From an uncultured Deferribacteres bacterium (GTDB lineage: Bacteria > Zhuqueibacterota > JdFR-76 > DREG01), in the NCBI GenBank assembly GCA_913009825.1, contig CAJVYQ010000022.1, positions 3,870-67,869 on the forward strand: a stretch of DNA of 64,000 nucleotides. The letters run 5' to 3'. Made by a program: the position numbers and the translations under genes. Below are positions 3,854 through 64,000 of the stretch, one piece after another (the first letter of the stretch is position 1; the number at the start of each line of letters is the position of its first letter). Below the pieces are notes generated by a model. That model made no database searches, was not told the DNA's origin, and was given only the letters and a program-made list of their open reading frames with translations.

Positions 3854-5017
3854 GTGCGAACTGATCATATCCGGTTCAAGTGCCACCTGCTCAAAGCCTA
3901 ACCAACAAAGCAGTAGTGAACCTCACGTGTAAACTCAGTAATGAGAATGCGAAGCTGAGGGAATCAAGAATGCAGGCTGCGTCACTGAGCCCTGAAATAT
4001 GTATAGTTGTGGTTTTTTAGATAATTCCCGATCTGTATTAGGGAAGAAAGCCGACGGCTTTGAGCTGTCCGGAAGGCAGAAGTCTTGCAAGCGGGGCATA
4101 TTTTCACAGGGATAATCCGGGAACTTGTCTGCCCGTCCGCAGGCGGGAGAGAGCCAACTGTCTCCTTGCAAGATTGCGGTCATGGGAGTACCAATCCGGG
4201 AAGGGCAAACCCCTGGCTTTTGTAAGGTTTTGCTCTACCCTTACAAGAGAGTCCGAGCAGGAATACCACGAATAAGGGAGCATGCGAAGGTATCCGGTAG
4301 CGATAGCTAACAGCGAAGTGGCCGGAGAAGGGCTTTTGGCAGTCTTAGTGGAACATAGTAGTGAAGATTTGTGAGTCATTTCTCACACATCGTGCAGATG
4401 GGGAAGTATACCAAGCCCAAGCGACCCACTGTATCCGCCATCAGACCGGTGGACATTCCCAAAGACAGGAATGGCGAATGTGACACCGGGCATAACGAAC
4501 CACTTTAGGGAATTATAGGAAAAACACAGAGTTTAGCAGCCATATCACCGAAACTGGAGAGAATTGCAGAGCTTGCAGAAACAGATTCAGAGCGGCAGTT
4601 TATTTCCGCAGCACATTTGTTAAACGTTGAATTGCTTTACGAGTCATTCAGGCAATTACGTAAAGACGCTGCGAGTGGCGTATCCGGCGTAACAGCGTAT
4701 GAATATGCAGAACGCTTCGAAGAGAATCTTGGAAATCTACATGACAGATTACGGACGAAGCGTTATATTGCACCGCCGGTAAAAGGAGTGTTGATAGACA
4801 AGGAGAAAGGCAGGCAGCGTCCACTTGGCATCCCAGAGCATGCAATTTGAAAGCATTTGTAAGTGGGCGGCAAAGTTATGCGCTCTGTCCTTTTCGGACA
4901 GAATTATACAACCGCTGATAAGCTATCTCTTAGTGCGGTTGTATACCGAAGAACCGTATGTGGTAATCCCACAAGTACGGATCTGTGGGGGGAGCGGCGA
5001 GTAATCGCCGATTCTAC
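3854..5017 (+). mobile_element. Degenerate group II intron-like element (RT ORF truncated); boundaries approximate
   Basis: GTGCG at 3854 (typical intron 5' end); GC-rich non-coding structured stretch 3860-4520; reverse-transcriptase N-terminal fragment; 34-nt domain-V-like hairpin at 4950-4984 (GAACCGTATGTGG-TAAT-CCCACAAGTACGGATC, 2-nt bulge on the 3' strand); domain-VI-like hairpin 4993-5014 with a bulged A about 7 nt before the proposed 3' end. Confidence 0.5.
4525..4850 (+). pseudogene. Reverse transcriptase (group II intron-type) N-terminal fragment
   Basis: Translation ...LLNVELLYESFRQLRKDAASGVSGVTAYEYAERFEENLGNLHDRLRTKRYIAPPVKGVLIDKEKGRQRPLGIP matches RT domain 0/1 and stops right after GIP; the finger/palm domains and maturase region are missing. 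Confidence 0.55.
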
Positions 5018-10390: not shown

Positions 10391-10982
10391 AACCGGATTT
10401 ATATTAAAAAATGGCAACAATTTAGTTTTTGATTCAATAAAACTTGTGAATAATCCAGGCCACATAGCTTACAAAAATGTTTCATCTGTGCGTATGTGTT
10501 TAAAAACCTTCTTTTCGTTTAAATGAAAATATAGTCACCCAGATGTTTTTTTGTTAAAATATTGTCATCTTTATGATTTTACTTGATATTTTCATTCCTG
10601 TTTTTTATTTTTTCAACACTACCGGATTTGTAAAATTATTTTCACGCTGAGGGTTCAGCAATAAATTCAGGGATTTCGAGAACTTTACTGTAAAATTTTG
10701 CCCGTTCTTTGTTTCACCTGAATTGAGCTATTCTAATGTCATCCAGAAGGAATCTTGTTGGTTTGTGCGTATAATCAACAAGATCCCCCTTGAATGACAA
10801 ACCCCCTGAGGAGTAGTTTTGAGTAAGGAATCGCTCAATTTAGGTGTCAATAAAATATAAAAAAGGTTGTCTTTTACCATAAGAAACAGTTACAGTGTGG
10901 GGTCTGGATCAGGATGATTTGTGAGTGATGGGGAAATTTAGTTTTACATCACAATTGTAGCTATGGAAGAGGAGGTGTTTCA

Positions 10983-33859: not shown

Positions 33860-34209
33860 TTGTAACTATTCAGTTCACGTCTGTCTGACACAGGCAGAAA
33901 GCACACGAAACAATCGAATGATCTCATCTAACTTTTTTCCTGTTTTTTTTTGAGTCTTTCGCGGGCTGCCTGAGTAGTGACAATACCGTAACACTTTAGT
34001 TTTTTGAACAAATCCGCTTTCTCTGCGCTCTCTGCGTCTCTGCGTTTTAAAGCGCCTGTTTTTTTAACGCAGAGACGCGGAGGGCGCAGAGAAATTGAAA
34101 AAATCGTCTGCCTATTCAACCCGCGAAACACACGAAATCATACGAATAGGACAAAATAGTTAACGATTCGCGTTTTTTAGCGATATTAGCGGGCAACCTG
34201 AGTAGTTAT
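33860..34209. repeat. MITE-like element, ~350 bp, copy 1 (12-bp terminal inverted repeats TTGTAACTATTCAG ... CTGAgTAGTTA)
   Basis: Near-identical over ~350 bp to 40705-41055, same orientation. Internal long palindrome CTCTGCGCTCTCTGCGTCTCTGCG...CGCAGAGACGCGGAGGGCGCAGAG. No ORF. Confidence 0.8.
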
Positions 34210-40704: not shown

Positions 40705-41055
40705 TTGTAACTATTCAGCTCACGTCTGTCCGACACAGGCAGAAAGCGCACGAAACAATCGAATGATCTCATCTAACTTTTTTCCTGTTTTATTTTTGTG
40801 TCTTTCGCGGGCTGCCTGAGTAGTGACAATACCGTAACACTTTAGTTTTTTGAACAAATCCGCTTCCTCTGCGCTCTCTGCGTCTCTGCGTTTTAAAGCG
40901 TCTGTTTTTTTAACGCAGAGACGCAGAGGGCGCAGAGAAATTGAAAAGATCGTCTGCTTATTCAGCCCGCGAATTACACGAAATCATACGAATAGGACAA
41001 AATAGTTAACGATTCGCGTTTTTTAGCGATATTAGCGGGCAACCTGAATAGTTAC
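40705..41055. repeat. MITE-like element, ~350 bp, copy 2 (ends TTGTAACTATTCAG ... CTGAATAGTTAC)
   Basis: Near-identical to 33860-34209; perfect 12-bp terminal inverted repeats in this copy. Confidence 0.8.
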
Positions 41056-41358
41056 ATCATTTTATTTATTTATGAATTTATTTTGCGTGCTAAACCGGAG
41101 ACAGCCTGTTTTGAGCATCATTACCTTTTGCCCGGCAGAACCCAATTTTCAGCGCTCAATTCATAAATAAAAAATAATAAAAATTATTTCGGTCAAACGC
41201 AATGGAAATATTGAAAAATTTGCAACTGTTCAGAGGAATGCAAACGGAAGCTAAAAGCGCTGTAAACAGGGCCGGTTCAGCGAATCGACCGACAAATCCT
41301 CTATTCGGGATCTGGTGTATTTTATGCGTTGCATGATTCCCAATCCGGATTATTTAGA

Positions 41359-52329: not shown

Positions 52330-55300
52330 TTATCCGGTCATGGCATAAAATGTTTTATCTGCTATCGCGAACTGCCGCTTTACCGGAAACAGTCGCAGGG
52401 GGATCACTTTTTCCGCAATGAGATTCACTTCGCCGGGAACCCGTGATTGAATTTGTCCGATAATCTGCACTGGCCCGGACAAGTTGGTTTCTCTGCCGAA
52501 TTTTTGATATACGGCGGGAAAGAGCACAACCTCGATGGTACCCCACAAATCTTCGATGGTAAGAAATTTCATATATTCATGTTTCGATGTTGATAACCGC
52601 CGCGACATAATAACCCAGCCGACAACCGTAACTTTTTCTCCTTTCTTTTGCAGCAGATCTACGGACTGTGTAAAATCAATTCCCGGATTGTTTTCTATGA
52701 ACAGAGAAAGTGGATGTGCCGTAACGGAAAATTTCAGCAGTTCCAGTTCATTCAGAATTTTCCGGTATTTGGGATAAGGGGGTAAATTCAGATCGGTAGA
52801 GAATGCCTCCGCCAAATATTTTCTCCGGTGATTTTTGAAAAACAGTTTTATTTTCATCAGGATGACAGCTTCACTGTTTTCAAAAAACCGGAAGCCGTTA
52901 CAGCGTGCCAGATTTTCTGCTTCCCGTTGATTCATTCCCGTTCGTAAAATCACATCGTAGAAATCACGGAAATCTTTTTGCCTTCGTTCCTTAATTATTT
53001 TTTGAATGGTCGACCGGCGCAATTCGGAAATAAAGGATAATCCTACCCGGATTCCGTTATTTTCAACCGTAAAAAGGGAATCGGATTTCAATATGTCCGG
53101 CGGGAGAATTTTGATACCAAGCCGGCGCGCTTCTTCCAGATAAGCGAAGCGGGGATAAAAACCGCCGTCGTTATTGAAAATGGCGGTCATATATTCCGCC
53201 GGGAAATGTTTTTTCAAATAGGCGGTTTGATATGCCAGCAGGCCATACGTGGAACTGTGCGCTTTATTAAACCCGTATCCGGCAAAATGATTGAGCCACT
53301 CCCATATTTTTTCCGCTGTTCCTTTGTCGATCCCTTTCCTTTCGGCGCCCCGGATGAATTTTTGCTGCATCGGTAAAAGGATGTCGTTATTGCGTGATTT
53401 TGTCATCGCCCGGCGCAAAACATCCGCTTCGCCCAATGTAAAACCGGCAATAGCCTGAGCCGCTAACAGAACCTGCTCCTGATAAAGGATGATGCCGTAT
53501 GTGCTTTGCAAAATGGATTTGAGGCTGGGATGTAAATAGGTTGTTTCTTCCAATCCGGCGCGACGGCGAATATAAACGTCTTTCATCCCGCCTTCAGCAG
53601 GGCCGGGTCGGATAAGGGAGATGGCGGCGATCACGTCATCCAGATTTTCGATTTGCATTTTGCGGATCAGTCCCCGCATTCCCGGACTTTCCAACTGAAA
53701 ACAGCCGATAGTGTCCGCCGCTTCGATGAAGGCGATGGTGCCGGGATCATCTTCCGGGATGCCGTTTATGTCGATTTTTATTTTGCGGTGCTGCTCTACC
53801 AATTTTACGGTTTCCGTGATCACACTCAGAGAACGAACACCCAGCAGATCTATTTTTACCAGGCCCAATTTTTCAATGGAATACATATCGTGCTGTGTGG
53901 TGATCAGTCCGCCGCCGGCCACTTCCAGTGGCGTAAAATGAGTAAGCCTGTCTGGCGCAACGACCGTGCCGCCCGGATGAACAGAAAGGTGACGCGGAAA
54001 ACCGGCGATGAAACGGGCCATACGATCAATCTTTTCCAGAACGGTTTCCTTATCCGGTTTGCCATTCTCCTGTGTTCGGGATTGTGACAACAAATTCGCT
54101 TGGCTGGTCAGGTGGGCGCATTCCGGAATATCGGTAATGGCGTGAGGAAGTTCCGTAATGCTGCGATGAGGAAGATTTTTGGTAATCCGCTTGATCTCGG
54201 TTTCCGGTAACCCCATAATTTTGGCAATTTCCCGGATGGAAGAACGCATTTGGAATGTAACAAATGTGGCAATCAAAGCGGTTTTTTCATGCGAGTATTT
54301 CTGATAAACGTATTTAAGCACTTTTTCACGGTTTTTCCAGCAGATATCCAAATCGATATCCGGAGCGTCGGTTCTTTCCGGATTGAGGAACCGTTCGAAG
54401 TACAGTTCATAGCGGATCGGATCTACTTGTGTAATGTCCAAAACATACGCCACCAGACTATCTGCAGCGGAGCCCCGGCCAACACAGGGTATGTTCTCTC
54501 TGCGGCAAAAATCGACAATCTCTTTGACAATCAGAAAATATTCTACAAAACCAAGGTTGGCAATGGTGTTCAATTCATGAGTTAATCGTTGTCTTGCTTC
54601 TGTGGTTACCGGTTGATAACGTTTTTTTAATCCGGAGTTGCATAATTTTTGTAATCGTTGAAATGCTGTTTCACCGGGATTCAAGTCGATTGCCGGGAAA
54701 ACAGGTTTGCCGAGAGAAAATTGGAAATCACATTTTTGCGCAATTTCCAGTGTGTTCAAAAGCGCTTCAGGGGAACTGCGGAAGCGTTTTCCGATCAGGA
54801 ACGGGGATTTGAGATATTGTTCGGAATGGCCGAATTCTGCAACCCGGTTGATTAGCTTATTCTCATCGATTGCCCGTAAAACCAGCCAGATTTCGTATTC
54901 CTGTGAGCGTAGTAGATGCACATCATTGGTCGCCACCGTATTAATTTTTAGCGCTTTGGCCAGATCGGTTGAGTAAATGAGAGAGAAATCATCCCGGGAA
55001 TGAAAACTTTGTAATTCCATGTAAAAATCATCTTTAAAAATTTCTTTCCACAAGAGTGCATTGTGGAAAGCCCGACGACGATTTCTTCTCTTTAAATGAC
55101 GGTAAATACTGCTCTTTTTCCCGCCGGAAAGGCAGATGAGCCCTCCACACCGTTCCGCAATGATGTGTGGATTCATGCGGAAATTGCGATGTCCGCCCTG
55201 CAAATTTCCACGGCTGATGATTTCACAAAGATTCCGGTAACCGGTTTGATTTTTCACCAGAAGAATCAGCGAGGATTCATCTTCCAAAATAATTTCCGCC

Positions 55301-55497
55301 CCGATAATCGGTTTGATCCCCGCCTCCTGTGCCAATTCAAAAAATTCCACCGAGCCGGACAGATTATTTGTGTCGGTTAGTGCCACGGCATTCATGTCCA
55401 GATCGCGTGTGCGGGCAACTAAATTTTGTAGTGTGATGGTGCTGTCGAGCAGTGAAAAGTTACTGTGACAGTGAAGGTGTATGAAGGATGTAGCCAT
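52330..55497 (-). CDS. dnaE2: Error-prone DNA polymerase (DnaE2/ImuC-type Pol III alpha paralog)
   Basis: N-terminal PHP domain (HLHCHSNFSLLDS), Pol III alpha palm/fingers; 1055 aa (shorter than replicative DnaE); immediately downstream of, and overlapping, a Y-family polymerase gene. Confidence 0.75.
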   Translation of the reverse strand: MATSFIHLHCHSNFSLLDSTITLQNLVARTRDLDMNAVALTDTNNLSGSVEFFELAQEAGIKPIIGAEIILEDESSLILLVKNQTGYRNLCEIISRGNLQGGHRNFRMNPHIIAERCGGLICLSGGKKSSIYRHLKRRNRRRAFHNALLWKEIFKDDFYMELQSFHSRDDFSLIYSTDLAKALKINTVATNDVHLLRSQEYEIWLVLRAIDENKLINRVAEFGHSEQYLKSPFLIGKRFRSSPEALLNTLEIAQKCDFQFSLGKPVFPAIDLNPGETAFQRLQKLCNSGLKKRYQPVTTEARQRLTHELNTIANLGFVEYFLIVKEIVDFCRRENIPCVGRGSAADSLVAYVLDITQVDPIRYELYFERFLNPERTDAPDIDLDICWKNREKVLKYVYQKYSHEKTALIATFVTFQMRSSIREIAKIMGLPETEIKRITKNLPHRSITELPHAITDIPECAHLTSQANLLSQSRTQENGKPDKETVLEKIDRMARFIAGFPRHLSVHPGGTVVAPDRLTHFTPLEVAGGGLITTQHDMYSIEKLGLVKIDLLGVRSLSVITETVKLVEQHRKIKIDINGIPEDDPGTIAFIEAADTIGCFQLESPGMRGLIRKMQIENLDDVIAAISLIRPGPAEGGMKDVYIRRRAGLEETTYLHPSLKSILQSTYGIILYQEQVLLAAQAIAGFTLGEADVLRRAMTKSRNNDILLPMQQKFIRGAERKGIDKGTAEKIWEWLNHFAGYGFNKAHSSTYGLLAYQTAYLKKHFPAEYMTAIFNNDGGFYPRFAYLEEARRLGIKILPPDILKSDSLFTVENNGIRVGLSFISELRRSTIQKIIKERRQKDFRDFYDVILRTGMNQREAENLARCNGFRFFENSEAVILMKIKLFFKNHRRKYLAEAFSTDLNLPPYPKYRKILNELELLKFSVTAHPLSLFIENNPGIDFTQSVDLLQKKGEKVTVVGWVIMSRRLSTSKHEYMKFLTIEDLWGTIEVVLFPAVYQKFGRETNLSGPVQIIGQIQSRVPGEVNLIAEKVIPLRLFPVKRQFAIADKTFYAMTG

Positions 55498-56677
55498 TTT
55501 TATCCATCCTGTATTTTGATTTTAAAATATGTGTTTTCGCCGGCAGCATGGCTGTGAAGCCGAAGCGATTGCGTATTTCATCGACGCTGTTCAGTAATTT
55601 TTTATTTTTACCGTCCATTGTAAAAAAGTCGGGCTGCCGGTTTTCCGGTTCAATCTCAGAGACGGAAATGTGAACGTGCCGGATACGGATTCTTCGTTCC
55701 TGCAACCGGTTGTAGAGCCGGTGTACCATGGTATTCAGAACGGCGGCGTCTTGTGTGTGTAACGGTAATTTTTGACCGATGGAAGAAATTTTAAAATCCG
55801 AGTACCGCACACGTAAATGGATGCAGCCACAGGTTAATTGCTGTTTTCGTAATTTCATGGCAATTCGTTCACAAAGGTACTGAAAGGTGGCCATCGCCAC
55901 TTGTATATCCTGTGTGTCTTCTTCAAAGGTTGTTTCACGGCTGATTTGTTTCGGTATATGCAGCGGCTTCACTTCACGCGGATCGATGGCGTTTGCATAT
56001 TGCCAGATTTTAAGTCCGTTGGCGCCCAACAACTGTTGGAGTGCCGGTTTGGGAATCTTTGCCAGTTGGCCGACAGTCTGAATACCCATTTGGAATAGAA
56101 GTGTTTCCGTAACCCGGCCAATTCCTAAAATTTCCGCAACCGGCAGAGGATTGAGAAATTTCCGCTCCCTGCCCGCCGGGACATAGGTGACCCCTCTTGG
56201 TTTGTGCTGCGCCGAGGCGATTCTGCTGATCAATTTTGAGGAACCGATGCCGATTGAGACAGGTATGTTAAGCTTTTCATCAATTGTTTTCTGCATCTCT
56301 CCGGCCGCCGTTTGCGGATCGGCAAATTTTCGCTGTGTACCGGTCATATCAATGTAAGCGTCATCCAGGGAAGTGAATTCGACCAGGGGAGAATAACCGG
56401 AAAGGATTTTCAGAATTTCTTTGGATATAAATTTGTAATGGAGAAAATTTCCTTTTAAAAAAACGGCCTGCGGACAGATCCGTTTGGCCTCGTGGAGCGG
56501 CATACCGGTTTTTACACCCAACGCTCTTGCTTCGTAACTGCCGGTATGGACAACGCCGCGCTGGTGGGCGTAACCGCCCACAATAACCGGCTTGCCGCAC
56601 AGGAAAGGGTTGAGACTCTGTTCTGCAGAGGCAAAAAACGCATCCACATCGAGGTGGAAAATAAGTTTCTGTTGCAT
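55460..56677 (-). CDS. dinB: Y-family DNA polymerase (DinB/Pol IV-like)
   Basis: Catalytic acidic residues present (IFHLDVDAFFASAE, SLDDAYIDMT), unlike ImuB; HhH region; overlaps the dnaE2 start by 38 bp. Start set at the second ATG (MQQKLIFHLDVD). Confidence 0.75.
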   Translation of the reverse strand: MQQKLIFHLDVDAFFASAEQSLNPFLCGKPVIVGGYAHQRGVVHTGSYEARALGVKTGMPLHEAKRICPQAVFLKGNFLHYKFISKEILKILSGYSPLVEFTSLDDAYIDMTGTQRKFADPQTAAGEMQKTIDEKLNIPVSIGIGSSKLISRIASAQHKPRGVTYVPAGRERKFLNPLPVAEILGIGRVTETLLFQMGIQTVGQLAKIPKPALQQLLGANGLKIWQYANAIDPREVKPLHIPKQISRETTFEEDTQDIQVAMATFQYLCERIAMKLRKQQLTCGCIHLRVRYSDFKISSIGQKLPLHTQDAAVLNTMVHRLYNRLQERRIRIRHVHISVSEIEPENRQPDFFTMDGKNKKLLNSVDEIRNRFGFTAMLPAKTHILKSKYRMDKNGYILHTPSLSQ

Positions 56678-56776
56678 GAAAATCTCCAATAATAGTGAAC
56701 ACACGACCACTTGTTAGAGTATATAAATGTTCACCTGAAAAGTCAAGTATTTTTTAATAATTTGGCTTTATTTTTT

Positions 56777-57088: not shown

Positions 57089-58378
57089 ATGCAAATGAGA
57101 CAAAATTGTATAAAGCTGAGAGTCCTCTTAATTTTCGCTTTCTCCATTTTGCTAATTGTTCCTCTTTTCAGTCAGGAAACCGGTTTGAAGAAACAGGCGA
57201 TGGCAAAATTCAGGCAGGGCGATTACGTGAAAGCGATAGAACTGCTGGAAGAAGCAAAAATTAAGGCGCCGAAGGATGCGGAAATTTATTACTACCTGGG
57301 TTATTTTTCTCACTACCTTGCTTACGATTATCGTCCGTTGATCGGGTATAATGTGGACTATTCCGATAACGTTTTACGGTATCTGTTAAAAGCTGTCGAA
57401 CTGAATCCGCATTTTGGTAACGCCTATTATTTTATCGGCGCTGAATATGGTGCAAGGGCGATCGGGGCTTTACAGAATGAAGATAAACATCGGTACAAAA
57501 CAGCATACCGGATGGCGTTCAAATATGAAGCCTTTCCACTTTGGTTGCTTGAGTATGGGCGCAACATATTAAACTCCTGTGACAAAAATGCCGTCCTTTT
57601 CGTCGGCGGTGATGCGGAATTCAATCCGTCGCAATACCTGCAGGTAGTGGAACATTTTCGAACGGATGTGACCGTAATCCCCATTGCGCTTTTGGACAGA
57701 CCATGGTATGTAGAAACGCTGTGTAAAGGCGTTGCCGGCGTGCTGAAAAAAGCGCCGCTCGGTTTCACTCACGAGCAAATTTTGAATATGCATCCGTACA
57801 AATGGGACACTTTAACAATTACAATTCCTATCAGCGATGCGCTGAAAAATGAGTTGCAGCTATCTCCGGCAGCCACAATGAAATGGAACATTCTTCCTGA
57901 TTTAAAATCCGATAGAGGCCCACGACTGAGCGCAGGCAGAGCGGTATTGGCAAATATCGTTGAAACCAACAAGTGGCAAAGACCAATCTGTTTCTCCCTG
58001 GGTTGTCATCCCTATTTTTTGGCAGGGCTGGATGATTATTTTCAACTTTACGGGGTGGTCAATCGATTGTTACCGGTGAAAACTAAAAACTCAATTTATC
58101 GGATTTCTCCACGGAGAGTAGAAAAAATTCTGTCAGACGTTCGAAATATCAAAGATTTTTATGATGTAAAATCGCATGATATGCCCCGTGTGTCAAATAT
58201 TTTATTGAATTATTATGTGGTTTTATACAGATTAGCTGCGCACTATAAAGAACAGAATCAGAAAGGGAAAATTAAAAAGATCGTAATTTATATAAAAAAA
58301 TATTTATCTCCGGATATTTTCCCGGGGGGACGGGAATTGATGAAAAGAATAGTTGAAATCGGAGATATGCATTTTTAA
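57089..58378 (+). CDS. Hypothetical exported protein with N-terminal TPR-like region
   Basis: Signal peptide/TM (LRVLLIFAFSILLIVPLFSQ), TPR-like helices, large C-terminal domain without recognised motifs. Confidence 0.55.
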   Translation: MQMRQNCIKLRVLLIFAFSILLIVPLFSQETGLKKQAMAKFRQGDYVKAIELLEEAKIKAPKDAEIYYYLGYFSHYLAYDYRPLIGYNVDYSDNVLRYLLKAVELNPHFGNAYYFIGAEYGARAIGALQNEDKHRYKTAYRMAFKYEAFPLWLLEYGRNILNSCDKNAVLFVGGDAEFNPSQYLQVVEHFRTDVTVIPIALLDRPWYVETLCKGVAGVLKKAPLGFTHEQILNMHPYKWDTLTITIPISDALKNELQLSPAATMKWNILPDLKSDRGPRLSAGRAVLANIVETNKWQRPICFSLGCHPYFLAGLDDYFQLYGVVNRLLPVKTKNSIYRISPRRVEKILSDVRNIKDFYDVKSHDMPRVSNILLNYYVVLYRLAAHYKEQNQKGKIKKIVIYIKKYLSPDIFPGGRELMKRIVEIGDMHF

Positions 58379-58455
58379 CCTTACTTAATTTTGTATCTCA
58401 ACTGTGAACTTTTTGTACTAAGAGTAAAGATTTCTGAACCGCTGCAAGTTTTTGT

Positions 58456-58896
58456 TTAGACCTTAACCCAGGAAGTACCCGACTTTTCCAGACTGTAATA
58501 GACCTTAATATCTTCCGTTTCCTCAAAGACCTGGGGAACCACCTGGAGTTCCATGCCGATCTCGATCTCCTCTTCTTTAATGGACTCGCCAAACCATGCC
58601 AATGCTCTGCCACCCTCTTCCATATCTACTACGCCCACGATGTAAGGGGCGGCATCCTCAAAACCGGTAGGCGCTGCCTCGACCTTTGTGAAGCTGTTGA
58701 GCCAGGCTTTCCCGCTCATCTCAAAAAACTCGAAATCCCCGCTCATGCACTTATCACAGTCGGCCCTGGGAGGAAAGGAGATAGAACCGCATTTTTTACA
58801 TTTCGATCCCATTAGATGACCGTCTTTTAGATAGCGGGCAAAGTCGCTTACTTTGGTATAAGGCGAATAATTAACTTTTCCGAACCATTTGAACAT
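58456..58896 (-). CDS. Zn-ribbon/OB-fold protein (DUF35-like; partner of thiolase-like enzymes)
   Basis: Rubredoxin-like CxxC...CxxC (KCKKCGSISFPPRADCDKC) followed by an OB-fold region; 4 bp downstream of the thiolase gene. Confidence 0.75.
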   Translation of the reverse strand: MFKWFGKVNYSPYTKVSDFARYLKDGHLMGSKCKKCGSISFPPRADCDKCMSGDFEFFEMSGKAWLNSFTKVEAAPTGFEDAAPYIVGVVDMEEGGRALAWFGESIKEEEIEIGMELQVVPQVFEETEDIKVYYSLEKSGTSWVKV

Positions 58897-58899
58897 TGT

Positions 58900-60057
58900 T
58901 TAATCCCTCCTCAAAACCTGGACAAAGCAGTACTGACCGATGCCTCCCACGTTGTGGGTGAGACCAATATCGGCGTTGGGGACCTGGCGCTCCCCGGCTT
59001 CGCCCCGTAATTGTTTGGCAATTTCATAAGTCATAGATACACCTGTGGCACCGATGGGATGCCCCTTTGCTTTTAACCCACCATCAACATTGACCGCCAC
59101 TTTCCCCCCGATATAGGTCTTGCGTTCGGCAATGAATCTCCCGCCTTCCCCTTTTTTGCAAAAGCCCAGGTCTTCATAAGCCATAATTTCGGCAATGGTA
59201 AAACAGTCGTGCACGTCGGCTACTTTAATATCGTCCGCCGTCACACCAGCCATCCGGTAAGCTTGGGCTGCGGCGGCTTCGGCACTGGGCAGGCTCGTCA
59301 GGCCCGGTCGTTTTAACACCGACATACTGGCAGTGGCACACCCCATACCGTCCAGCCAGACCGTCTTTTGAGAAATCTCCCTGGCTCTATCTTCGCAAGC
59401 CAGGATAATACATGCAGCGCCGTCCGCATTAGCACAGCAATCGTACACCTGCAGCGGTGATGCCACCTGGGCGGATGCCTTCGCTTTATCCATGGTGATC
59501 TCTTTGCGGAACAGGGCGTTGGGATTCTTTGCACCGTAAAAATGATTCTTTATGGCCACCTGGAACATCTGTTCGCGGGTGGTGCCGAATTCATGTATAT
59601 GCCGTTGGGCAAACAAGGCGTAGTAAGCGGGAAACGTTGTTCCAAAGACCGACTCCCACTGCACCTCACCAACCCTGCCCATGAGAGCCAGGATTTCCGG
59701 TGTGCTCAATTCCGTCATTTTCTGGCACCCGATGACTGCGACAATATCATGGACTCCCGCCTTAATTGACATCCACGCCGTGCGAATGGCTGCGCTTCCG
59801 GAAGCACAAGCCACCTCGGTGAGCCAGGTGGGTTTGGGCACAAGCCCCAGGTACTCCTGCACTACTCCCGCCAGGGAACGCTGCTTGTGGTATTCGGGAA
59901 CGGAACCGATAACCGACGCGTCCAGTTCTTTACGCTCGATCCCGGCATCTTCCAGCGCCGCTGCGAAGGCCTCGAAAGCCAGCTCCTGCACCGTAGCGTC
60001 GCTGCGCCTGCCGAATACGCCGTGACCTAAACCAATAATTCCGACTCGTTTCGTCAT
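58900..60057 (-). CDS. Thiolase-like protein (SCP-x/archaeal-type)
   Basis: Thiolase fold with active-site cysteine context (TEVACASGSAAI) and C-terminal GHPIGATG; lacks the classical biosynthetic thiolase signature. Confidence 0.75.
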   Translation of the reverse strand: MTKRVGIIGLGHGVFGRRSDATVQELAFEAFAAALEDAGIERKELDASVIGSVPEYHKQRSLAGVVQEYLGLVPKPTWLTEVACASGSAAIRTAWMSIKAGVHDIVAVIGCQKMTELSTPEILALMGRVGEVQWESVFGTTFPAYYALFAQRHIHEFGTTREQMFQVAIKNHFYGAKNPNALFRKEITMDKAKASAQVASPLQVYDCCANADGAACIILACEDRAREISQKTVWLDGMGCATASMSVLKRPGLTSLPSAEAAAAQAYRMAGVTADDIKVADVHDCFTIAEIMAYEDLGFCKKGEGGRFIAERKTYIGGKVAVNVDGGLKAKGHPIGATGVSMTYEIAKQLRGEAGERQVPNADIGLTHNVGGIGQYCFVQVLRRD

Positions 60058-60068
60058 TTACCGTCTCC

Positions 60069-60818
60069 TTAAATATACTGTCCGCCATCCACCTGGATAA
60101 CTTCGCCGGTGATGTGACGGGACCTATCCGAGCAAAGGAAAACCACCACATTTGCACACTCTTCGGGAGAGGCGATCCTTCCCAGCACGGTTTCATCCAC
60201 CGCCTTATTAAGAAACTCGGGCGGAATTTTTCGTGCCATCTCCGTCATCACCATGCCGGGCGCGACCACGTTGACATTCACGTTGAACTTTCCCAGTTCC
60301 CTTGCCAGGGATTTGCTCATTGCTATTTCGCCGCCCTTGGAGGCAGAGTAATTGACCTGACCAAACTTTCCCCTAAGCCCGTTGATGGAAGAAATATTCA
60401 CGATCTTACCGCTCTTTTGTGTCTTAAACACTGCCGCCGCCGCTCTGTTATAGTTGAAATAACCTTTCAGGTTCACGTTAATCACCCTATCCCATTGTTC
60501 CTCTGACATTTTCCAGATAACCCCGTCCCAATTAATCCCGGCATTACAGACCATTATATCCAACCGACCGAACTCCCTGACGACCGTATTTATCATATTT
60601 TGGCCGTCATTGTAACTGGCTACATCCGCTTTTACAGCCAATCCTTTGCAGCCCATCTCCTCGATCTTACAGATTACCTCTTTGGCTTCGGCATCGTGAC
60701 GCCGGTAGTTGATGGCAACATTACATCCCTCCTTTGCCAGTCCAAGGGCAATGGCAGCGCCGATTCCCAGACTGCCGCCGGTAACAATAGCACTTTTACC
60801 ATCCAAACCTAAATCCAT
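60069..60818 (-). CDS. Short-chain dehydrogenase/reductase (FabG-like)
   Basis: TGGSLGIG cofactor motif, NAG, S...YSASK catalytic tetrad, PG motif NVVAPGMVMTEM. Confidence 0.85.
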   Translation of the reverse strand: MDLGLDGKSAIVTGGSLGIGAAIALGLAKEGCNVAINYRRHDAEAKEVICKIEEMGCKGLAVKADVASYNDGQNMINTVVREFGRLDIMVCNAGINWDGVIWKMSEEQWDRVINVNLKGYFNYNRAAAAVFKTQKSGKIVNISSINGLRGKFGQVNYSASKGGEIAMSKSLARELGKFNVNVNVVAPGMVMTEMARKIPPEFLNKAVDETVLGRIASPEECANVVVFLCSDRSRHITGEVIQVDGGQYI

Positions 60819-61089
60819 AATTTATTTCTCCTCTTTTGTGCTATATGCAGTTTTTGCAGTTGAGAAAAAAATATTTTTCCCTGAATTTCCATTTTTTTTA
60901 TTGATAAATCGTAATTATTCAGCTAGCTAAATTTAACCACAGAGGTCGCAGAGAACGCGGAGTTTTTTTAAGCATTTTTATACCTTCATCAGAAAATTTG
61001 CTGTTTTCCTGAATTTAGCAAACATAGAAAACTAAATTTATTTTCTCAGCGTCCTCTGCGCTCTCCACGGTGAATAGCTGCGCTAAATC

Positions 61090-62847
61090 TTATGACTCAC
61101 GTAAATCAATAACATGGGCATCATCGGGCAAACCTTCAAATTGACCTTTAATCATGCAGTCGATGTACTCTTTATAATTTTTTTCTATGCTTCTCGGAAT
61201 AATCTTAAAAGAGGGAGTTAACTCATTCTTCTCTAAACTTAATTCCTGATCAATGAGAACCGCTTTTTCGATCCGTTCAAAATCCACGTTTAAGTGGCGG
61301 TTTATCTTGTGAAGGCATTCAGAAAAACATGTCGTCAGCAAATCTGATGTCCCGGGATGATTACATTCTGATTCATCCAGCACACTGATCCCGGTTGAAT
61401 CCAGAAGCTCATAGTTTGGGAAAAGCAAAGCAACAGGATGATCCTGTCCGGCGCCAAAAATGTAAGCATGTTTTATAAACTTACATAGATTTCCGATATT
61501 TCTTTCAAGCATTGAAGGAAATACTTTTTCACCATTATTTAATTTGAATATTCGATCTTTTCTTGCCTTGATTTTTAGACCGTCAGGGATGATTTCGCCA
61601 ATGTCGCCGGTCTTAAACCAACCGTCTTTATCAAGAACTTTAGCCGTTTCATCCGGCATGTTAAAATAACCTTGCATTACATTAGCCCCCCGGACTAAAA
61701 TTTCATCATCATCGCCTAATTTAATTTCTACACCGGGGATTGGAAATCCAACAACACCCGGTTTCCGATGGAGCAGCAGTTTTGTCAATGTGCAACAGGG
61801 TGAGGTTTCGGTTAGCCCCCATCCTTCGACGACGGGAATATCCTTTTGTTTAAAAACATCGGAAATAGCGAGAGACAAAGGCGCTGCTGCGGTAAACACA
61901 AATTTCAAATCTTTGTGAAAAAAAATATCTTCCGATTCTTTTGAAACCAGCACGCGGGAGATGATTTCTTTATACACCTTGGGTACACTAAAATAGATGT
62001 GTGGTTTAATTTCCGAAAAATTCTTAAACAAAATATCAATATCTTTGCCCCAGGAATCATCGACTGCCAGACAACCTCCCGAATGCAGGGCAAAGAAACG
62101 TTCAAACAGTCCGCCAAAGCTATGATGCCAGGGTAGATAGCACAAAAATCTCATGCCGGGGTCTGGATTCCACAGTGTCCGCAGCGCGCTTTGTTGAGAG
62201 AGTATATTATAATGCGTAAGTCTAACCCCTTTCGGAAAACGAGTGGTGCCCGATGTGAACATGATCAGACACGTATCGGTAGGTGCGATGTCTAAAAATA
62301 ACTTTTCAATGTTTTTCCTGTCCGCGGGAGACAGTTTGACTTTTCTCATAATATCATCGAAAAACTCAACATGTTTCTCAAAAGGATAAAACTTCCTCGG
62401 AAACTCCGGTGTTTCCATCACGACGAGATGCTTGTTTGCCACCGGCAAGTATTCAAGCCGCCAATAATTCACCAGAATGAGCATTTTAACTTCGGAAAAT
62501 TTAAGTAACTCGGACATCATCTTTTCTGTATAGCGATGAAAAATCGGAACGCTGATAAAGCCTGATGCCATGATTGCCATCTCAACGACTAAACGGTCGT
62601 AATAGTTACGACTGATCACGGCAATCCGATCTCCTTTCTTCAGTCCTTTATTTTTTAAGTAAAAAGAAAACTTGCAAATATCATTAACAAGCTTGGTCCA
62701 TGTCCAATATTGAAATTGGGCATCCATTTTCTGAGCAAATGCGGGCAGATCGCTATAGTTATCCTGATTGTTTAAGAACATGGTACCGATATTTTTGGTG
62801 ATTTTTCCCAATGGGAATTGTGAAGTTAAATAGTTGTTTTTAATCAT
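61090..62847 (-). CDS. AMP-dependent synthetase/ligase (acyl-CoA synthetase family)
   Basis: AMP-binding signature IMFTSGTTRFPKGV, downstream GWGLTE and C-terminal lysine region. Confidence 0.8.
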   Translation of the reverse strand: MIKNNYLTSQFPLGKITKNIGTMFLNNQDNYSDLPAFAQKMDAQFQYWTWTKLVNDICKFSFYLKNKGLKKGDRIAVISRNYYDRLVVEMAIMASGFISVPIFHRYTEKMMSELLKFSEVKMLILVNYWRLEYLPVANKHLVVMETPEFPRKFYPFEKHVEFFDDIMRKVKLSPADRKNIEKLFLDIAPTDTCLIMFTSGTTRFPKGVRLTHYNILSQQSALRTLWNPDPGMRFLCYLPWHHSFGGLFERFFALHSGGCLAVDDSWGKDIDILFKNFSEIKPHIYFSVPKVYKEIISRVLVSKESEDIFFHKDLKFVFTAAAPLSLAISDVFKQKDIPVVEGWGLTETSPCCTLTKLLLHRKPGVVGFPIPGVEIKLGDDDEILVRGANVMQGYFNMPDETAKVLDKDGWFKTGDIGEIIPDGLKIKARKDRIFKLNNGEKVFPSMLERNIGNLCKFIKHAYIFGAGQDHPVALLFPNYELLDSTGISVLDESECNHPGTSDLLTTCFSECLHKINRHLNVDFERIEKAVLIDQELSLEKNELTPSFKIIPRSIEKNYKEYIDCMIKGQFEGLPDDAHVIDLRES

Positions 62848-62853
62848 ATATAA

Positions 62854-63720
62854 TCAGCCTCCTTTTTCTTCTGAGGATTGAATAGATTGCTCTCTCAATT
62901 TTACATGACGAAAAGCGCCCCAGATTGCCGTCCCAATTGCGCCGGCAAAAACAGAAAGTTTATGAGTACAAAAACAAACGTTCATTTTCTCGTTTTCAGC
63001 CAATTCATGCATGGCTGCCACAAAACCTTTATTATTAGCTAATCCGCCGGTGATCATAACTTCGCCGCTTGCATTAAGACTGCGAAGTAAATTAATGAGC
63101 CGTCGTCCCATGGAAAGATGGATCCCCTTTAAAATATCGCCGGCAGGGATACCGCGACTGACCATGTTGATCACATCAGTTTCCGCGAGAACGGCGCAGA
63201 TTCCTGAAACCATCTCCGGCGAGGTGGATTGCATGGAAAGATCGCCCACATCTTCGAGAGGAATCCCCAGATAACGCGATATGTTTTCCAGGAATTGACC
63301 CGATCCCGAGGCGCACTGTGATGTCATTTTATATGCCAACACCTTTGAACGTGAGTCTACAACAAGAGCTTTGGCATGCAAAGCCCCCACATCTATAATC
63401 GCCCGGACATCCGGATTCAAAAACAAAGCGCCTCGTGAGTGAGACGTCATCGAGTAGAAATGTCCTCTCCGAAAATCCACCATCTCACCTTCACCGGTTG
63501 TGGCAATATAGGCAATGTCGCCGGTGGTCAGCTCTGCTTTCGACAATACATGTTCATAAGACTGTGAGATGACCTGCTTCGTATCTCTCTTCCTGATTTT
63601 GTTTAAATCTGTAGCAAGCAATTTTCCATTTTTACCGTTGTTATCAAATTCCATCACCACCGTTTTAATCGAGTTTGAACCGACATCGATTCCGGCGGTA
63701 TAAATTGTTTTCAGCCACAT
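62854..63720 (-). CDS. BadF/BadG/BcrA/BcrD-type ATPase (CoA-substrate-specific enzyme activase, HgdC-like)
   Basis: N-terminal ASKHA motif AGIDVGSNSIK, central GEGEM and C-terminal ITGGLANN. Confidence 0.7.
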   Translation of the reverse strand: MWLKTIYTAGIDVGSNSIKTVVMEFDNNGKNGKLLATDLNKIRKRDTKQVISQSYEHVLSKAELTTGDIAYIATTGEGEMVDFRRGHFYSMTSHSRGALFLNPDVRAIIDVGALHAKALVVDSRSKVLAYKMTSQCASGSGQFLENISRYLGIPLEDVGDLSMQSTSPEMVSGICAVLAETDVINMVSRGIPAGDILKGIHLSMGRRLINLLRSLNASGEVMITGGLANNKGFVAAMHELAENEKMNVCFCTHKLSVFAGAIGTAIWGAFRHVKLREQSIQSSEEKGG

Positions 63721-63905
63721 ATTTTTTCCGGTTTTTTTATTTTTTACCTAAATTGAGTGATTCTTAGCTTGAAACAACCACCCAAAGAGTTTTGTCATTC
63801 TGCCTGCCCGACCACAGGCGGGAAAGAATCTCGCTAGTTCTGTTCACTAAACCAACAAGATTCCTACGGAATGACATTAAAATCGCCCAATTTATTTTTC
63901 AGTTA

Positions 63906-64000
63906 TTACTTGCTGTTTCCGGCAAAAAGCGCCGCTCCGCAAGCGCCGGTATAGATGCTGTCCGGACTGACATTGATTTTAATATTACCGTAATTCTCTA
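63906..64000 (-). CDS. 3' end of a gene whose start lies outside the window (possibly another BadF/BcrAD-type ATPase)
   Basis: Minus-strand frame open to the window edge, ending ...ENYGNIKINVSPDSIYTGACGAALFAGNSK**. Confidence 0.3.
   Translation of the reverse strand, partial: ENYGNIKINVSPDSIYTGACGAALFAGNSK

Follow-up and report, generated by a model that had tools for sequence, protein, structure and literature searches.

Minus-strand genes closing a contig stretch of an uncultured Deferribacteres bacterium very likely belong to a class I benzoyl-CoA degradation operon

Which enzyme is served by the activase-like genes that close a 64,000-nt stretch of contig CAJVYQ010000022.1 from an uncultured Deferribacteres bacterium (positions 3,870 to 67,869; hereafter the window), and which compound does the surrounding gene cluster degrade? 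The last part of the window, 58456–64000, is occupied by six minus-strand reading frames that an earlier note, made from the sequence alone, had listed in order as an activase, an AMP-forming CoA ligase, a short-chain dehydrogenase/reductase (SDR), an SCP-x-type thiolase and a Zn-ribbon/OB-fold protein, with a possible further activase-family gene at the window edge. Open-reading-frame calls and domain models confirmed all of these genes and their order, with E-values between 1e-13 and 1e-145 (Pfam, NCBIfam) that rule out chance for the gene calls. Our analysis indicates that the window very likely carries the promoter-distal half of an operon for benzoyl-CoA degradation of the class I kind (ATP-dependent, Thauera/BCR-type).

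The 288-aa protein encoded at 62854–63720 (minus strand; Pfam BcrAD_BadFG, E = 7e-59) passed TIGR02261 benz_CoA_red_D, the model for the ATP-binding delta subunit BcrD of benzoyl-CoA reductase, with 336.3 bits (cut-off 312.85). Among solved structures, MbdP/MbdQ of 3-methylbenzoyl-CoA reductase (9gai) come closest to it. A DVGS phosphate/nucleotide-binding motif lies at residue 12, and Cys136 (CASGSG) and Cys175 (SGICAV) align with the matching MbdP cysteines in 9gai; by analogy with the HgdC/BCR family, we take these two residues to be the bridging [4Fe-4S] ligands. The suspected activase-family gene at the window edge proved real. Positions 63906–64000 (minus strand) hold the final 30 codons and stop of bcrA, the remainder lying outside the window, and their translation, ENYGNIKINVSPDSIYTGACGAALFAGNSK followed by the stop, is identical to the C-terminus of a 436-aa BcrA encoded on a second contig, L082. 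This full-length BcrA, the ATP-binding alpha subunit of the reductase, scored 547.9 on TIGR02259 benz_CoA_red_A, slightly short of its cut-off (578). Judged by these models and alignments, the two "activases" are BcrD and BcrA, ATP-hydrolysing subunits integral to a class I benzoyl-CoA reductase, and not free-standing activators.

The earlier note had expected an ATP-dependent radical dehydratase or reductase nearby and had proposed looking beyond base 64000. L082, an 8.9-kb marine-metagenome contig (ENA ERZ909563) retrieved by an exact-protein look-up with the ligase, made this possible: it is 99.9% identical to window positions 61085–64000 (3 differences over 2916 bp) and extends 5967 bp past the window edge, with the gene order oah, dch-like, bcrC, bcrB, bcrA, bcrD, ligase. 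The reductase subunits were found there, just past the edge, with BcrC (533 versus 421) and BcrB (719 versus 487) both above their equivalog cut-offs. Further upstream, the ring-opening hydrolase Oah passed TIGR03200 (530 versus 464), and a dienoyl-CoA-hydratase (Dch)-like crotonase stayed below the cut-off of TIGR03189 (192 versus 292.5). Since the ring-opening enzyme scored 530 bits on the Oah model and only 121 bits on BadI, the locus represents the dienoyl-CoA (Thauera) pathway variant rather than that of Rhodopseudomonas palustris. The operon order is thus oah–dch-like–bcrC–bcrB–bcrA–bcrD–ligase–SDR–thiolase–DUF35, of which only the part from the end of bcrA to the DUF35 gene lies inside the window.

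The catalytic subunit also retains the expected cluster residues. In the L082 BcrB, Cys86, Cys121 and Cys364 align with MbdO cysteines in 9g87, and the active-site cluster of BzdO has three cysteines, Cys95, Cys128 and Cys380 (PMC11971306), to which we infer that the BcrB residues correspond. As a separate observation, BcrB (L082 3473–4750) has a Phe three residues past Cys121, as does MbdO in the alignment; in BzdO, the position three past the second cluster cysteine is His131, an acid/base residue (PMC11971306), and the proton-delivery residues of enzymes of the benzoyl-CoA and methylbenzoyl-CoA reductase type may differ from those of the solved BzdO.

The equivalog matches of BcrB, BcrC, BcrD and Oah identify benzoyl-CoA as the substrate, which the earlier note had considered not identifiable, and leave little doubt that the cluster encodes a class I benzoyl-CoA pathway. 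The genes flanking the activase homolog encode a CoA-dependent reductase, and the homolog itself is not a sugar kinase-type ASKHA protein. In the scheme that we propose, the ligase would convert benzoate, or a closely related aromatic acid, into the aryl-CoA thioester. The BcrA/BcrD ATPase dimer, with its bridging [4Fe-4S] cluster, would then drive low-potential electrons into BcrB/BcrC by ATP hydrolysis, and BcrB/BcrC would reduce benzoyl-CoA to cyclohexa-1,5-diene-1-carbonyl-CoA; family membership follows from the model scores, and this chemistry would carry over from the characterised family. Dch, Had and Oah would hydrate, oxidise and hydrolytically open the ring to give 3-hydroxypimelyl-CoA, a step for which Oah is encoded on L082 and Had is seen in relatives only. 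Finally, the SDR would oxidise 3-hydroxypimelyl-CoA to 3-oxopimelyl-CoA, and the thiolase, complexed with the DUF35 protein, would cleave the latter into glutaryl-CoA and acetyl-CoA.

What supports this assignment of the last three genes? The 249-aa SDR (60069–60818, minus strand; adh_short_C2, E = 1e-63) is of the classical type and found its best PDB match in the (3R)-hydroxyacyl-CoA dehydrogenase 2et6 (222 bits), above FabG structures. It fell below the FabG equivalog TIGR01830 (272.8, cut-off 297.75), passed the loose FabG subfamily model NF009466 (233.4 versus 222), and has no fab genes nearby. The 385-aa SCP-x/archaeal-type thiolase (58900–60057, minus strand; Pfam Thiolase_N and Thiolase_C_1) passed NF004720, the PRK06064 subfamily, at 482.8 against a cut-off of 420, carries the HDCF catalytic-loop motif (VHDCF), and is best matched in the PDB by archaeal thiolase (7yvy and 6esq). 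Three nucleotides after it begins the gene for the 146-aa DUF35 protein (58456–58896, minus strand; zf-ChsH2 and OB_ChsH2_C), with four Zn-ribbon cysteines (CKKC...CDKC) and a best PDB match to 6esq_E, the DUF35 subunit of the archaeal thiolase/HMG-CoA synthase complex (61.5 bits, compared with 36.7 bits for BbsA); it is presumed to be the scaffold partner of the thiolase. The resemblance to alkylsuccinate-type, Bbs-like modules suggested in the earlier note did not hold up: as a BbsAB benzoylsuccinyl-CoA thiolase the pair was rejected, scoring 50.5 on BbsA (NF053627, cut-off 250) and 182.9 on BbsB (NF053628, cut-off 750). The thiolase/DUF35 pair is closest to archaeal-type thiolase complexes, and synteny would place it in the lower benzoyl-CoA pathway.

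We therefore favour, with some reserve, the oxidation of 3-hydroxypimelyl-CoA by the SDR and the cleavage of 3-oxopimelyl-CoA by the thiolase/DUF35 pair, an assignment drawn from synteny and from the fact that processing of the Oah product takes just a 3-hydroxyacyl-CoA dehydrogenase and a thiolase, neither a hydratase nor an acyl-CoA dehydrogenase being needed. The corresponding dehydrogenase and thiolase steps are established in Aromatoleum as AabC/AabD (PMC9795900), and benzoate induces an SDR and thiolase pair in Geobacter metallireducens (PMC1924859).

To place the cluster among its relatives, we compared ~170 loci collected with BcrD, Oah and ligase homologs as independent seeds; the closest relatives in the seed scans had BcrD at 67% identity (genome contigs) and Oah at 72% (metagenomes). 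The ten-gene block oah–dch–bcrC–bcrB–bcrA–bcrD–ligase–SDR–thiolase–DUF35 recurred in L083, L084, L085/L086 and L170 at 61–91% protein identity. In L089, the contig of an FCB-group homolog with 63% ligase identity, the block has a classical thiolase in place of thiolase/DUF35, and the same replacement occupies the position of the two genes in L171. Close relatives of the SDR are 84–89% identical, and the thiolase is 79–91% identical in relatives and always beside the SDR. With orthology set at 50% identity or more, SDR orthologs lay directly downstream of oah in 14 of the 63 evaluable Oah-seeded loci and anywhere in the locus in 19. The zinc alcohol dehydrogenase Had (TIGR03201, 439 versus 339) is encoded upstream of oah in L083, L085 and L089, and a Had-like gene was present in SDR-ortholog loci wherever sequence upstream of oah was covered; this co-occurrence led us to reject the SDR as a substitute for Had and marks it as an additional enzyme.

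The SDR–thiolase–DUF35 triad also occurs beyond this block. It is 79–87% identical beside oah in L097, L104, L108 and L109 (60–67% G+C), and in L097, L108 and L109 Oah is only ~66% and the reductase 27–35% identical to the window-type proteins; loci with this divergent reductase have 64–67% G+C. The module is either unusually constrained or has been exchanged between clusters. The reductase of these three loci scored best on the BcrC and BcrB models (286 and 221 bits, under the cut-offs), and an initial "BZD-type" label was dropped, as there was no bzd equivalog match.

Relatives differ in what surrounds the block. After the DUF35 gene, L083, L084 and L085/L086 encode a 4-hydroxybenzoyl-CoA-reductase-like molybdoenzyme (TIGR03194, 982 versus 995), made up of an FAD subunit and a fused Fe-S/Mo subunit and followed in L085/L086 by molybdenum-cofactor biosynthesis genes (L083 14310–18040; L085 14243–21758); the window has no such genes at the corresponding position, 57089–58455. 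Upstream of the block, L083, L085 and L089 also encode a lone HadB-like protein accompanied by an activase of its own. More broadly, many related clusters contain a HadB-like HGD-D protein (~410 aa; NF052455, 226 bits, under the cut-off), a 250-aa activase and a PanE/ApbA-like reductase (L083 1–1978, L085 1–1860, L089 1–2150, L101 1652–8487, and L171 9054–10022 and 15885–17967), a trio not visible for the window's strain.

The remaining gene, a 585-aa AMP-forming acyl/aryl-CoA ligase (61090–62847, minus strand; AMP-binding and AMP-binding_C_3), resisted assignment by similarity. It passed no NCBIfam model, the best being PRK12582 (178, cut-off 777), and scored 144 on the FadD11 model (cut-off 950); its likeness to long-chain FadD11/ACSL-like ligases is limited to domain architecture. 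By sequence and by fold it is ~20% identical to its best PDB relatives. A predicted structure (pLDDT, the predicted local distance difference test, 82.9) searched with Foldseek showed a generic ANL fold whose neighbours — luciferases, 4CL, CAR and FadD13, all ~20% identical — gave no substrate information. A canonical benzoate-CoA ligase (BadA/BclA/BzdA) was tried and rejected: the 25 top-scoring NCBIfam matches, each with at least 100 bits, did not include benz_CoA_lig; no benzoate-CoA ligase other than MatB chimeras appeared among the best 60 of 65 PDB matches (E <= 1e-10); and none of the canonical type was found near related clusters, where the other AMP-forming ligases are FadD11-like or PRK06187-like.

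In the related loci, the ligase ortholog immediately follows the ATPase genes of the reductase in 22 of 27 cases, and in the remaining 5 it adjoins the HadB-like and PanE-like genes that belong to these clusters; look-ups seeded with ligase homologs landed in benzoyl-CoA reductase clusters every time (7/7). Homologs 63–84% identical carry the source labels "Bacteroidota bacterium" or "FCB group bacterium". Only 6 nt separate the bcrD stop of the window from the ligase start, which is in the same frame (62845–62856), and natural BcrD–ligase fusions exist in two independent lineages: P0004 (871 aa; L170 4903–7518), within a cluster of the window's gene order, and P0039 (878 aa; L171 6395–9031), recovered on six contigs, of which the two shown come from different sequencing runs. 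Other lineages have the ligase fused to a PanE-like reductase. A targeted literature search found no paper on linkage between this ligase and the class I reductase.

Six ligase cysteines, C351, C352, C455, C495, C507 and C511, are shared by all orthologs that are linked to a reductase, including those only 40% identical, and are absent from the FadD11-like ligases of the same loci. In the predicted structure, C507 and C511 share one helix and C495 sits in a low-confidence loop; these family-specific residues may form a metal or Fe-S site. The ligase appears to be a member of an uncharacterised ANL subfamily tied to benzoyl-CoA reductase clusters, and it probably forms the aryl-CoA substrate. 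Whether that substrate is made from benzoate itself is close to an even bet, leaning slightly against. It is possible, if doubtful, that the ligase is either a dedicated partner of the class I reductase or the entry enzyme of an undescribed aryl-acid route. In the first case, as a non-canonical benzoate/4-hydroxybenzoate-CoA ligase, it could dock on BcrD and hand its thioester straight to the reductase; in the second, the ligase together with the PanE-like reductase and HadB-like protein/activase of relatives could convert aryl-2-oxo or 2-hydroxy acids to benzoyl-CoA.

Several observations count against reading the window as part of a benzoyl-CoA operon, or against parts of that reading. All genes upstream of the bcrA end were read from another sample's contig, L082, and not from the window. 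L082 ends in a repeat that recurs twice inside the window, which marks an assembly break, and had, ferredoxin and ferredoxin-regenerating genes are consequently not visible for this strain. The Dch-like protein and BcrA score under their equivalog cut-offs. The SDR is also above the cut-offs of the generic subfamily models "FabG" and "glucose 1-dehydrogenase"; an Arg-Arg pair after strand beta-2 suggests NADP(H), which is unusual in a catabolic dehydrogenase, and an R-type SDR may not suit the stereochemistry of the Oah product. The ligase is not a canonical benzoate-CoA ligase, and the fact that its family is fused or adjacent to a HadB-like protein and to PanE-like reductases may point to another acid substrate.

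How else might the accessory genes be explained? Among the alternatives, the one that survives best, although unlikely, would make the ligase, SDR and thiolase/DUF35 a peripheral module for beta-oxidation of aryl side chains and not part of the lower pathway. The ligase would activate an aryl-propenoate or a dehydrated aryl-lactate, the SDR would oxidise 3-hydroxy-3-arylpropionyl-CoA, and the thiolase/DUF35 pair would release benzoyl-CoA (or 4-hydroxybenzoyl-CoA) and acetyl-CoA for the reductase. Ligase/dehydrogenase/thiolase routes from phenylpropanoids to benzoyl-CoA have been described (PMC5109826), and a DUF35-dependent thiolase, BbsAB (7pxp), cleaves aromatic 3-oxoacyl-CoAs, although the window pair scores far under the BbsA and BbsB cut-offs. 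The 4-hydroxybenzoyl-CoA-reductase-like enzyme placed directly after DUF35 in relatives would fit such a route, as would the association of the ligase family with PanE-like 2-oxoacid reductases and HadB-like protein/activase, which would provide a path from aryl-lactate to cinnamoyl-CoA; no 4-hydroxybenzoyl-CoA reductase, PanE or HadB-like gene is in view in the window's own cluster, however. The enoyl-CoA hydratase that this route requires is absent from the FCB-type clusters apart from the Dch-like protein and Oah, and in many loci the SDR, with or without thiolase/DUF35, lies between oah and dch with no ligase nearby.

It is quite unlikely that the SDR and thiolase/DUF35 pair act on C4 compounds, either as a 3-hydroxybutyryl-CoA/acetoacetyl-CoA dehydrogenase with its thiolase or in the synthetic, PhaB/PhaA-like direction. 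The closest named models and structures of the thiolase are archaeal acetoacetyl-CoA thiolases (NF053570, 355 bits; 7yvy, 6esq), the SDR reaches 243 bits on the acetoacetyl-CoA reductase model TIGR01829, and it appears from its sequence to prefer NADP(H). Both model scores are nevertheless under their cut-offs (600 and 302, respectively), the block lacks glutaryl-CoA dehydrogenase, crotonase and polyhydroxyalkanoate synthase genes, and the tight linkage to oah suits the step right after ring opening better.

Very unlikely, in turn, is a reductase specific for a substituted aryl-CoA — methyl-, hydroxy- or halo-benzoyl-CoA — with the ligase activating the corresponding acid. The non-canonical ligase and the sub-threshold scores of BcrA (548 versus 578) and the Dch-like protein would be in keeping with this, and class I enzymes for substituted substrates exist, such as MbdONQP (9g87/9gai), but the scores of BcrB, BcrC, BcrD and Oah are clearly above the cut-offs of the benzoyl-CoA-pathway equivalogs, and BcrB matches MbdO with only 196 bits.

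Last, there is next to no chance that the BcrAD-family proteins are HgdC-type activators of a fermentative 2-hydroxyacyl-CoA dehydratase, as the activase label in the earlier note implied: the family and fold are common to both, BcrD passes the generic acyl-CoA dehydratase activase domain model TIGR00241 (149.9 versus 125.4), and HgdC and HadI are among its solved relatives, but its above-cut-off BcrD equivalog score is more than double that value, the two ATPase genes are unlike (436 and 288 aa) as in BcrA/BcrD, Oah and Dch-like genes are adjacent, and the partner genes are BcrB/BcrC equivalogs that reach only 157 and 197 on the HadB/HadC models (cut-offs 750 and 700), so that the BcrD, BcrB and BcrC model scores effectively refute the idea.

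Read as a benzoyl-CoA operon, the cluster most resembles BcrCBAD of Thauera aromatica, with the same bcrC–bcrB–bcrA–bcrD order, the B, C, D and Oah equivalogs passed, the ATPase and BcrB cluster cysteines present, and had–oah–dch linked to the reductase in close relatives. It differs in that a ligase gene rather than a ferredoxin gene follows bcrD (in T. aromatica, fdx occupies this position), and in that BcrA falls slightly and Dch clearly under the cut-offs. Thauera is, moreover, a denitrifying betaproteobacterium, whereas the host here, judged by the Bacteroidota and FCB-group labels of close relatives of the window cluster, is apparently a member of these groups. The position of the ligase gene recalls the badDEFG–badA cluster of R. 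palustris, in which a CoA ligase gene comes directly after that of the D-type ATPase subunit. BadA, however, is a canonical benzoate-CoA ligase, in contrast to the ACSL/FadD11-like ANL ligase of the window with its AMP-binding_C_3 domain and extra cysteines, and the ring opener here is Oah and not BadI.

For the last two steps, the aab genes of Aromatoleum sp. CIB, which we compared by reaction logic only, provide the same two proposed reactions on the Oah product from adjacent dehydrogenase and thiolase genes (PMC9795900). The window differs in having an SCP-x/archaeal-type thiolase with a DUF35 partner and a FabG/MFE-2-like SDR, and in carrying these genes inside the reductase operon, whereas aab lies next to bad-ali genes. 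A Zn-ribbon/OB gene adjoining an SCP-x-type thiolase gene, as here, is found in the archaeal thiolase/HMG-CoA synthase/DUF35 complex (6esq) and in BbsAB (7pxp); 6esq is the best solved relative for both the thiolase and the DUF35 protein. There is no HMG-CoA synthase partner in the window cluster, the direction would be catabolic and the substrate another one, and the BbsA/BbsB equivalogs failed widely. MbdONQP (9g87/9gai) and BzdNO (8s02; PMC11971306) belong to the same BCR/HAD radical-enzyme family, with an ATPase dimer and an Fe-S catalytic dimer, and are distant: BcrB scores 196 bits against MbdO and 73 bits against BzdO.

The core of the cluster is an ordinary BCR-type benzoyl-CoA pathway, and its accessory genes differ from those of characterised model clusters. 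In facultative anaerobes, the anaerobic breakdown of aromatic compounds hinges on class I benzoyl-CoA reductase, and bcr genes are already widely known from metagenomic surveys, some of them from outside Proteobacteria. The complete, well-conserved cluster of Thauera type described here, in marine bacteria that are low in GC and Bacteroidota/FCB-like, is further evidence that this capacity extends well beyond Proteobacteria, the group in which it has been studied, and bears on carbon turnover in anoxic sediments. The analysis also corrects annotation, since automatic pipelines would label the genes "activase", "long-chain-fatty-acid-CoA ligase", "FabG" and "acetyl-CoA acetyltransferase". It yields two testable candidates: a compact set of SDR and thiolase/DUF35 pair for the two reactions that follow ring opening, and a reductase-linked ligase family without a characterised member; of the whole cluster, the ligase is the only part deserving follow-up.

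The intergenic distances are, in nucleotides, bcrA–185–bcrD–6–ligase–271–SDR–11–thiolase–3–DUF35. The 271-nt ligase–SDR gap folds at -70.9 kcal/mol (z = -5.5 versus shuffles) and measures only ~50–80 nt in the relatives L083 and L085. From its folding and the gap length in relatives, it would contain an inserted hairpin-forming palindromic element of ~170 nt (60917–61088); a ferredoxin gene was sought in the gap, which contained only tiny reading frames and this hairpin repeat. Similar CTCTGCG-type palindromes occur at window positions 34018–34094 and 40864–40940 and at the end of L082, where positions 1–209 match window 34018–34208 and 40864–41071 at 94–95% and terminate the contig just upstream of oah; the 60917–61088 element had no BLAST match to these other copies. 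The 185-nt bcrA–bcrD gap (63721–63905) corresponds to ~24 nt in L083, and a 44-nt segment of it matches window 10721–10764 at 86%.

Downstream of the DUF35 gene lies a convergent gene for a TPR protein (57089–58378, plus strand), followed by a polymerase pair, so that the cluster stops at 58456. The remaining genes of the window, including those for LptD, Hsp70, TrkH/TrkA, YchF, ROK and TPR proteins, are housekeeping genes with no link to aromatic metabolism; the window has a GC content of 44% and contains three tRNAs and no rRNA. The polymerase pair (52330–56710, minus strand) consists of a Y-family polymerase of 416 aa, matching DNA pol IV models, and a DnaE-like protein of 1055 aa, whose genes overlap by 38 nt. 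The DnaE-like protein scored 913 on the replicative DnaE model (cut-off 1002) and 730 on the error-prone model (cut-off 939), and the pair beside the catabolic cluster looks like an error-prone polymerase cassette.

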